This document shows, piece after piece, positions 9,001 to 10,935 of a stretch of 10,935 nt of DNA. Position numbers: made by a program. How positions within the stretch are numbered: position 1 is the first letter of the stretch; every line of letters begins with the position of its first letter. Source of the stretch: a virus (taxonomy: Duplodnaviria > Heunggongvirae > Uroviricota > Caudoviricetes); the IMG/VR virus record IMGVR_UViG_2534681940_000021; one strand, given 5' to 3'.

Positions 9001-10935
9001 AGGGAGGTGGTAAAAGTTGCCTGTCCGGAGTGTGGAGGGAAGGGAGAGGTATCCACTGCCTGTAAAGATTGTCGTGGGCGCGGTGTTGCCATTCATCGTG
9101 AAGAGTCGGGAAAAACAGGGTGTGCCGGTTTTCAGAAACTGTCAGCGTTGTGGTGGGCGTGGCTATGAAAGATTACCTTCAACGGAGGCATTTAATGCCA
9201 TATGTAATGTAACCGATGCCATATCTCTTGATACATGGAAAAAACAGTTAAACGTTTTTACGATACGCTGGTGGTGCAGTTTGATATTGAAGAAGCATGG
9301 GCAGAACAACAACTGAAAAAGGTGACCAGATAGCTTTGTTGATTTTTCCCGAATCTGTGGTAAATTTGCCCTAACGATGGGCGTTTTATGCCTGACGTTA
9401 GAAGATTTTTTACACCCGTCGCCAGGCGGGTTTTTTTATGACTGAAATCACGCCAGTACAGTAAACGCGCTGGTGGTTGTGAATACCGGTCTTTCTGCTT
9501 GCTGGCTTTTTCGACAAGAGTTATTGGTGTGTCACGTTAACCGGAAATTGGAAAGTTTGAGAAACGCGATCTGGCACAGGTGGTGATTAACGCCGCATAC
9601 CTGGTGGCCTGTGCAGATGGTGAATGTGAGGCTTCCTAGAAAGCGAAGATCGAACAGGTACTGCGTAATCAGCCTGCGCTGTCCGCGTTTACGTCAGAAA
9701 TTAATGCGATTAGCGCAACCATTATCGGTCAGCTGGATACGAACTTTAAAACTGGTCGTCGTGCGGCGTTACGTGAGATCGAGGATGTGAAACACGATAC
9801 GCGTGAAGCGGAAGATGTGCTGGATGTGGCGGTGGCCATTGCGGAGGCAGACGGCGAAATTGAGCCGGAAGAGCGCAAGGTGCTGGAAGAGATTGCCGGT
9901 GTTCTGGGTCTTCGTCTGGAGAATTACCTGTGACGGTAAAACTGCGCCTGACTGTGGCTGCACTCCTGCTGTTTCTGGTGGTGATGGTGGATTTCACCAG
10001 CAGAATCATGTCGGTGCTGGCGGATGGGGTGCTGGTCTGCGGCATTGTGGTATTGCTGTGGCCGGTGATAAAAAGAAACAGCCTGCATATGCTTGATTTT
10101 TTTGTTGCTGTTTATTAAAAACACTTCTGCATGGTCGAATCCCCCCTGTGCGGTGGGGCAATCAGCAAGAAGGAATATGGGGTAATCGCGGATTCAGGTG
10201 CTGGTACTGAATTCACCGGGAGGCACCCGGCACCATGCTTCGCCACAAAAGTGTTATTTCTGTTTTTCTCAAACTATCATCGTTATCCCTTTATTTCCGG
10301 CTGCGCATGGCGCGGCCTTTTTTTTACGTACCAGCCACTGGCAGATGGTCATCCTGTGATTTGATTCCGGTTCCGGCTTTTTAACTCTGTTCCTGTACAC
10401 GGGAGAAATTCGATGTCGATTAAACATTATGATGTTGTCAGGGCGGCGTCGCCGTCAGATCTTGCGGAAAAGCTGACACACAAACTGAAAGAGGGCTGGC
10501 AGCCATACGGCGGACCGGTTGCCATTACGCCGTACACACTGATGCAGGCGGTGGCTATTGAAGGAGAGCCACAGGTCGGCCCTTCATCTGAGCCGGATTG
10601 GTACTACGTCATCGTACTGGCCGGGCAGTCCAATGCCATGGCTTACGGTGAAGGGCTTCCGCTGCCGGATTCATACGATGCTCCGGATCCGCGCATTAAA
10701 CAGCTGGCGCGCCGGCAGGTACAGTGACGCCGGGCGGGGCTGCCTGCAGATATAACGATATTATTCCGGCTGACCACTGTCTGCATGATGTGCAGGATAT
10801 GAGTACGCTGAATCATCCGAGGGCTGACCTGAGCAAAGGGCAGTACGGCTGTGTCGGCCAGGGTTTACATATTGCCAAAAAACTGCTCCCGTATATCCCG
10901 AATAACGCGGGGATCCTGCTGGTACCATGCTGTCG

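Follow-up and report, generated by a model that had tools for sequence, protein, structure and literature searches.

In Stx-converting phages the late region runs in the order Q, PR'/tR', (tRNAs), stxAB, STnc100, AgvB/AsxR, nanS-p and the lysis genes (PMC4104026; PMC12370729). The use of the site behind PR' as a place for morons, together with a model in which the operon is expressed by read-through, was described by Tree et al. (2014; PMC4104026). A second described arrangement is the PasD2 locus of prophage PP2 in EPEC strain E2348/69 (PasD is also found in phages 434 and 2B8), where a DUF3927 gene is followed by an sRNA, a SASA/NanS-p esterase gene and a holin gene. PasD belongs to the EcOnc13 family and is an Hfq-dependent sRNA (Pearl Mizrahi et al., 2021; PMC8550237), a dependence shown in EPEC by Northern blot and RIL-seq; the PasD2 copy has been verified experimentally (PMC8550237). 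A common origin of PasD and STnc100, and their linkage to the esterase gene, has been proposed in a 2026 bioRxiv preprint (Zhu, Shabalina and Storz). A third relative is the tciA-tciB(-tciC) module of phages P1 and D6, in which a TerB-family protein of about 143 aa is annotated as a moron beside tciB; these names rest on homology to plasmid ter genes (PMC6799933). Phage JLK-2012 annotates the corresponding lambdoid module as tciA/tciB/yjhS. The slot concept, the annotation of the module in phage records and in PHROG, the sRNA and the esterase are all already known.

The window analysed here is the whole of a 10,935-bp draft contig (AIFM01000018.1; assembly GCA_000249415.2), identified through exact-protein look-ups, and it is the immunity-to-late-regulation segment of a lambda-like E. 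coli prophage. Prophages of O157:H7 and O103:H2 strains (L003 and L004) share 99.4% identity with positions 111–9554, and a prophage of strain D1, like at least seven further finished genomes, shares 98.8% with positions 9300–10935. The D1 locus is annotated in the order Q, a TerB pseudogene with an internal stop, DUF3927, SASA esterase, holin and lysozyme. The contig ends within the esterase gene; in the relatives, genes for holin, endolysin and spanin come next. The stretch 9438–10935 is the known variable moron slot between Q/PR'/tR' and the lysis genes, and it contains a pseudogene of tciA (TerB family), tciB (DUF3927), an sRNA gene of the STnc100/PasD family and the 5' end of a nanS-p gene (Table 1). 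The reading that we favour, and hold with good though not complete confidence, is of the standard cargo slot and late-operon leader of a lambda-like E. coli prophage in which tciA is dead and the one-base indels private to this contig are most likely errors.

Table 1. Features of the slot and of the regulatory region preceding it (coordinates of the window)
Feature	Position	Strand	Basis and details
Q antiterminator gene	8512..9333	+	Pfam Antiterm (PF03589); lies outside the feature under study, which it is predicted to drive
Candidate PR' promoter	9339..9366	+	−35 TTGATT 9339–9344, 16-nt spacer, extended −10 TGgTAAATT 9358–9366; read by eye from the sequence
tR'-like intrinsic terminator	9414..9438	+	7-bp stem ACCCGTC/GGCGGGT followed by T7; terminator scan
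Post-tR' leader	9439..9543	+	Common to methyltransferase-cargo prophages; ends at the deletion junction, ~9541–9555
tciA pseudogene, codons 15–143	9544..9933	+	Amber TAG 9637–9639; natural stop TGA 9931–9933; alignment to the intact JLK-2012 and 2011C_4247 genes
tciB, predicted two-helix small membrane protein	9930..10118	+	PF13064, 62.3 bits; phrog_1470 (PHROG moron family)
sRNA gene, STnc100/PasD family	10093..10325	+	Rfam RF02076, position, terminator scan
nanS-p-type 9-O-acetyl-sialate esterase gene, 5' 523 nt	10413..10935	+	DUF1737 domain match; homology to the D1 copy

Prophages that share this backbone differ in what they carry. At the same site L003 and L004 have a methyltransferase gene and tRNA-Met, strain UTAK-10 (L019) has a multi-moron array, L005 and L006 have tciAB, and the Stx1a phage (L011) has stx1AB followed by STnc100 and then nanS-p. 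Aligning the region to Stx and non-Stx prophages thus finds one slot with swapped cargo, and bears out an earlier note on this DNA, which had placed the cargo in an stx-equivalent slot downstream of Q/PR'/tR' and whose features all lie where it located them. The backbone and slot logic of Stx-converting phages are those of the window, with STnc100 placed between the cargo coding sequence, which it directly follows, and the esterase gene, but they carry the toxin where the window carries a dead tciA and tciB. Unlike them, the window has no tRNAs, no AgvB/AsxR and a different sRNA 3' end: no tRNA genes were found at its cargo site, and the Rfam models of the convergent anti-sRNAs AgvB and AsxR (RF02702/RF02703) gave no matches at E <= 1 in 8400–10935, opposite strand included. 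Matches to these models are present in L003 and L011. In all the loci compared the STnc100 match stands directly upstream of the esterase gene, 79 nt 3' of stx1B in the Stx1a phage. The sRNA goes with the esterase gene and not with the cargo, and both are conserved backbone flanking the variable slot and not retained cargo, although the esterase had been suggested to be a retained moron. As the locus illustrates, toxin, methyltransferase, tRNAs or tciAB can each occupy the PR' slot as cargo, while Q, the sRNA, the esterase and the lysis genes stay constant around it.

Expression of the slot would follow the read-through model. Transcription would begin at PR', just 3' of the Q gene, and an unmodified polymerase would halt at tR'; a Q-modified polymerase alone would pass this terminator and continue through the cargo, the sRNA terminator and the esterase gene into the holin, endolysin and spanin genes past the contig end. 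This Q-dependent read-through is predicted from the promoter and terminator sequence, the candidate PR' matching 8 of 12 consensus positions and falling under the promoter-scan threshold. The intact Q homologue (L003:13403–14221) scores 174 bits against PF03589. In alignment to L003 and L004 the Q gene of this contig has a private +G at 9108 and a private −A at 9238, with a stop at 9166–9168, and a private −A at 8507 changes the tail of rusA.

The one part of the cargo that is truly dead is tciA. An intact gene encodes 143 aa, and homology in the window begins at codon 15; upstream of this point lie an in-frame TAA (9538–9540) and no usable start codon, and further on TAG replaces the GAG of intact genes. 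A complete translatable tciA reading frame (about 143 codons with a start) is absent from the window, codons 1–14 and the start being deleted and the frame interrupted at 9637. The segment after the amber codon still scores 32.7 bits against PF05099 (cutoff 24.4), compared with 61 bits for an intact homologue, and TciA matches the TerB structure 2JXU in the PDB (E = 4e-8) and the PHROG moron family phrog_632 (E = 1e-68). The remnant is a TerB-family pseudogene, not a functional member of the family. Neither lesion is peculiar to this contig. A 45-mer query all of whose 28-base seeds cover the TAG finds the amber allele at 1,005 places in 577 of 5,426 complete E. coli genomes, with up to five copies per genome, and the junction between leader and tciA is present in about 497 complete genomes, many of them O157:H7. 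PGAP labels the copies in D1 and in the O157:H7 strain PV15-279 as TerB pseudogenes with an internal stop. Because they are common to hundreds of finished genomes the TerB lesions are not read errors; they are real and old, tciA is inactivated, and the dead allele is widespread among STEC and EPEC prophages. The earlier description of a TerB-like gene with two lesions was correct on both counts.

The loss of the 5' end can be traced by comparison with UTAK-10, which has the same backbone and Q allele as the window and retains an intact array consisting of a hypothetical gene, a DNA methyltransferase gene, tRNA-Ile/Arg/Arg, two hypothetical genes, intact tciA and tciB. Window positions 9000–9554 match 13327–13881 of the UTAK-10 prophage and positions 9543–10935 match 16389–17778. 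The two split matches indicate that about 2.5 kb has been deleted in the window, joining the leader (L019:13881) to tciA codon 15 (L019:16389), and the junction sits in purine-rich microhomology (GAAA..AAAG). PV15-279 has the TAG together with a full-length 5' end, and the amber mutation therefore preceded the deletion. In the order that we propose, an amber codon would have arisen in tciA first, and a microhomology-mediated deletion of about 2.5 kb would later have fused the PR' leader to codon 15, which would make the window cargo a deletion derivative of the longer array that is intact in UTAK-10. The intact modules of JLK-2012, 2011C_4247 and UTAK-10 are 90–93% identical to the window in nucleotide sequence from tciA codon 15 to the esterase start and share its gene order and the GTGA overlap of tciA and tciB, but their tciA genes have a start codon, codons 1–14 and GAG for TAG, and are preceded by tRNAs and other morons.

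Homologues of TciA are widespread in phages, among them P1, D6, Erwinia jumbo phages and Vibrio phages. The P1 and D6 proteins have 41–52% identity to intact lambdoid TciA and lie, unlike the lambdoid slot, in the tRNA region of a plasmid prophage. It had been suggested that the TerB-like protein and its membrane partner form a stress or phage-exclusion module that has been inactivated. The inactivation of tciA is real, but the role is an inference at the level of the name: among PADLOC defence-system profiles TciA has one sub-threshold match (E = 0.0056, 13.8 bits) and TciB has none, and a reading of the pair as a known defence system was dropped on this ground.

The abundance of the disabled allele (577 genomes against 124 with intact tciA, a figure that counts one intact haplotype only), its presence in up to five copies per genome and the near-invariance of the sequence after the TAG could be taken to mean that the remnant is kept for a function, either as an untranslated leader controlling tciB or the sRNA or as a coding sequence translated by read-through of the amber codon or from an internal start. 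We regard this as highly improbable. The copies are almost identical, so that their conservation reflects recent spread, together with heavy sampling of STEC clones, rather than any measurable selection. Furthermore, the window offers no start codon anywhere from the in-frame TAA (9538) to the TAG, and the sole in-frame start downstream, GTG at 9787, has no correctly spaced Shine-Dalgarno sequence.

The GTG start of tciB overlaps the TGA stop of tciA (GTGA), and it has a Shine-Dalgarno sequence of its own, GGAG at 9918–9921, eight bases upstream, from which tciB could still be translated. The match to PF13064, a domain of 53 residues, covers residues 3–51; the tail alone differs, after residue 53. 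Here a private −A at 10088 turns the consensus ending ..HNA* into ..HMLDFFVAVY*, giving a product of 62 aa in place of the consensus 54–55 aa. The gene-position index has the exact 62-aa product on this contig alone, and a 46-mer of the private tail has no match in the 5,426 complete E. coli genomes. A 48-mer of the consensus tail spanning the tciB–sRNA junction, which served as positive control, occurs in 661 genomes at a median of five copies per carrier genome. What had been read as a translationally coupled 62-aa membrane protein is thus a DUF3927 protein with the GTGA overlap, but its length is private to this contig and probably an artefact.

The esterase gene has a Shine-Dalgarno sequence GGGAG at 10401–10405 and a GQSN serine motif at 10623–10634, and it is a NanS/NanS-p homologue. 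The full-length D1 homologue has the Pfam architecture DUF1737+SASA+DUF6645 and matches NanS (PDB 3PT5, E = 2.8e-121) and NanS-p (6YP6, E = 1e-29). The calls of TerB, small membrane protein and NanS-p-like families in the earlier note are upheld by these and the foregoing Pfam, PHROG and PDB matches. In the window the gene reaches codon ~174 at the contig end, out of a frame of about 616 codons with a C-terminal NanS-p domain (DUF6645) in relatives, and the frame break before this point is possibly an error. It had been described as frameshifted near 10700..10727, and extra Gs do stand in the sequence at 10715 and 10718, where all relatives read CGC CGC AGT ACA GTG and the window reads CGC CGG CAG GTA CAG TGA, with the stop at 10725–10727; the shifted frame is open through the contig end. 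The frameshift allele was found in none of the complete E. coli genomes, metagenome contigs or GTDB representatives searched (the wild-type allele, the positive control, is on seven metagenome contigs), and the gene-position index likewise lists the exact 104-aa frameshifted product for this contig only. The frameshift is private and probably a sequencing error, not decay, and the gene is probably among the elements that still work.

These two lesions belong to a larger set. Ten one-base indels prove private to the contig when it is set against its nearest finished relatives: 8507 −A, 9108 +G, 9238 −A, 10088 −A, 10104 −T, 10136 +C, 10141 +C, 10329 +T, 10715 +G and 10718 +G. The majority alter the length of a homopolymer. 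They are confined to the final 2.4 kb, 22% of the contig (chance p = 3e-7), and the 8.4 kb before it has none. Between the contig and its nearest relatives there are 10 indel events to 17 substitutions, against 12 to 314 when finished genomes are compared with one another over these segments (Fisher p = 4e-7). Besides the esterase and tciB tail alleles, the Q +G allele was looked for, and it too is in none of the 5,426 complete genomes. From the assembled sequence rather than from reads, we judge that the lesions in Q, the tciB tail, the sRNA and the esterase gene are most likely sequencing or assembly errors and not decay; they could be real strain-specific mutations. Repeat collapse is only partly tenable as the source of them all. 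The tciB–sRNA segment is multi-copy, but the 5' part of Q is usually single-copy and the Q region as a whole mostly so in finished genomes (median of one place per genome), and simple collapse therefore fails for the indels at 8507–9238.

If the lesions were taken at face value, accumulated frameshifts would have cost the prophage Q, the esterase and the native tciB tail, and perhaps also the sRNA, and all of the cargo in the late region would be a remnant, as had been proposed. Such wholesale decay has points in its favour, in that the lesions stand in the deposited sequence, tciA is truly dead, the largely single-copy Q region means that collapse artefacts are not guaranteed, and a frameshifted esterase copy is known in finished O157:H7 genomes (that of PV15-279 is annotated as frameshifted and has an 8-bp insertion). 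We nonetheless consider it unlikely. There are ten private indels to about five private substitutions in 2.2 kb, while finished relatives show about one indel event for every 26 substitutions; two independent +G insertions lie only 3 nt apart; non-coding homopolymers are also affected; the first 8.4 kb is free of private indels; the esterase frame is otherwise intact past the frameshift; and the private alleles tested are in no other sequence searched. The label of decayed cargo fits tciA only, the esterase lesion being one of ten private one-base indels that are most likely errors. The case calls for caution, as errors of the draft assembly most likely account for half of the described decay. 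In annotation, the 48-aa TerB, 62-aa DUF3927 and 104-aa esterase products of this contig should not be counted as proteins.

A further possibility concerns the continuity of the contig. As far as 9554 the window has 99.4% identity to L003 and L004, from 9300 onward it has 98.8% identity to D1, the changeover lies inside a stretch of about 320 nt identical in both (9158–9476), the whole window occurs in one piece at >=99% in no finished genome, and the tciB–sRNA junction has a median of five copies per carrier genome. It might be, then, that a Q part of O157/O103 type and a tciA-remnant module of D1 type, from two prophages of one genome, were mis-joined in the identical stretch. We think a chimera of this kind quite unlikely, given that lambdoid prophages are naturally mosaic, that the leader–tciA junction is present in 497 finished genomes, that UTAK-10 naturally links the same backbone to the tciAB module, and that a mis-join alone would not yield one-base indels.

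The remaining part of the slot had been taken for about 180 nt of non-coding sequence ending in a strong terminator. The terminator is there, with an 8-bp stem at 10299–10317 and T8 to 10325 in the terminator scan, but the stretch before it is the gene of a known regulatory RNA and not a spacer. Rfam STnc100 (RF02076) matches 10100–10274 with 81.8 bits against a gathering score of 47 (E = 2.5e-17), over the full span of the model. The same model scores 100–107 bits in TerB-type relatives, 144.5 bits in a methyltransferase-cargo prophage and 190.7 bits in the Stx1a phage, and private indels at 10104, 10136 and 10141 lie inside the gene in the window. A candidate promoter has its −35 element TTGATT at 10093–10098, where it overlaps the stop codon of the consensus tciB, and its −10 element, the A/T-rich TATTAAAA, at 10113–10120; the 5' end would lie near 10125–10130. 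Having a candidate promoter and a terminator of its own, the sRNA could be expressed in the lysogen without Q. Single-sequence folding was indistinguishable from that of shuffled sequences (z = −1.3 and −0.8) and so does not strengthen the covariance-model match. Weak Rfam matches to suhB/mmgR (9361–9446) and asX2 (10298–10364) were rejected as under threshold and as reflecting terminator hairpins.

The 3' end of the gene is not that of STnc100. The positions of the model's terminator hairpin are deleted in the window alignment and the 3' third is unmatched; a PasD-type hairpin at 10299–10317, about 25 nt downstream of the model match, supplies the predicted termination. By position the sRNA is the homologue of PasD2 (NC_011601 741157–741328, 172 nt), which likewise lies between the DUF3927 gene and the esterase gene. 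The two share a homologous candidate promoter region, TTGA(T/C)T...TATTAA, and a terminator, GGCTGCGCAT(G/T)GCGC(G/A)GCC plus T8, and the 5' ends of the adjoining esterase genes are 98% identical. The loci differ upstream, where the PasD2 locus has a gene for a 247-aa hypothetical (membrane) protein in the place of tciA, and in the body of the RNA, the 5' two-thirds of which is of STnc100 type in the window. The E2348/69 and phage 434 copies fall short of the Rfam STnc100 threshold, which the window copy passes. The PasD seed UGUGAG, the complement of the CUCACA target motif, is missing from the window, where the aligned position reads UUUAUU. Hfq dependence of the window sRNA is assumed by analogy with PasD. 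These features could mean that the window sRNA is a hybrid STnc100/PasD allele (STnc100 5' body, PasD terminator, UUUAUU seed), perhaps with targets other than those of either characterised relative, and that the tciA remnant may persist as a leader of tciB and of this sRNA; we consider that combination very unlikely.

A protein-coding reading of 10131–10364 (a 77-aa ORF) was rejected, given the frame-breaking indels among finished relatives and the match to an RNA family. At the corresponding place in phage 434 an ORF is annotated.

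In the contig, the gene for the Q antiterminator is disrupted by one inserted G and one missing A, separated by 130 nt, with a stop at 9166-9168; another missing A removes the stop codon of rusA. All three indels in the rusA tail and Q are homopolymer-type changes that are private to this contig, and if they are real the entire late operon would be Q-blind. The 3' end of Q, together with the candidate late promoter PR' and terminator tR', lies in a stretch of about 320 nt (9158-9476) that is identical between the two prophage lineages giving the best matches to the contig, one on its left side and the other on its right. 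This stretch marks either the natural recombination point or, possibly, an assembly mis-join.

A frameshifted copy of the nanS-p-type esterase gene is also found in a finished genome. In E. coli O157:H7 PV15-279, this gene (positions 4297-6153 of locus L010) is annotated as frameshifted and, compared with the window, contains 8 additional bp near window position 10895. Natural NanS-p pseudogenes thus exist, with a lesion at a site other than that of the window copy (extra Gs at 10715 and 10718). For tciA, the TerB-family gene that is interrupted by an amber codon in the window, the short ORF called on the remnant corresponds to the whole of phrog_3920 (48 positions; E = 3.7e-36 against the TciA C-terminus), and this family appears to be made up of pseudogene fragments of the amber allele.

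An intact tciA is found in E. coli UTAK-10, where it is followed by the DUF3927 gene tciB at the end of a long serial array comprising a hypothetical gene, a DNA methyltransferase gene, tRNA-Ile/Arg/Arg and two further hypothetical genes. This array indicates that several 'alternative' cargos are able to coexist, and that internal deletion yields the shorter versions.

Features located in this part of the analysis
Feature	Position	Remarks
isrK and C4 antisense RNA (Rfam)	4310-4383 and 4409-4492	tandem, 5' of ORF 4545-5093
hok/sok type I toxin-antitoxin locus	within 5196-5520 and 5623-6304	sok 117 bits; hokD ORF
RelE/ParE-family toxin gene and HTH antitoxin gene	within 5196-5520 and 5623-6304	minus strand; adjoins hok/sok
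rusA tail and Q gene	8142-9333	private indel sites 8507, 9108, 9238
48-aa ORF	9787-9933	GTG start; called on tciA remnant
77-aa ORF	10131-10364	overlaps sRNA
Cargo array 3' of Q	L019 13887-16943	UTAK-10; prophage backbone same as window's

The STnc100/PasD-family sRNA gene is overlapped by an ORF, and in the phage 434 record a 62-aa 'putative membrane protein' (CPT_434_70; L002 4182-4370) covers the equivalent PasD region plus the terminator. Finished relatives differ there by indels that break the frame, which speaks against such an ORF being a gene.

Further upstream, the isrK (52.4 bits) and C4 (70.5 bits) matches closely precede an ORF6N-domain, antirepressor-like gene, a set that resembles an antirepressor control module of the P1/P7 C4 and IsrK type within a lambdoid prophage.
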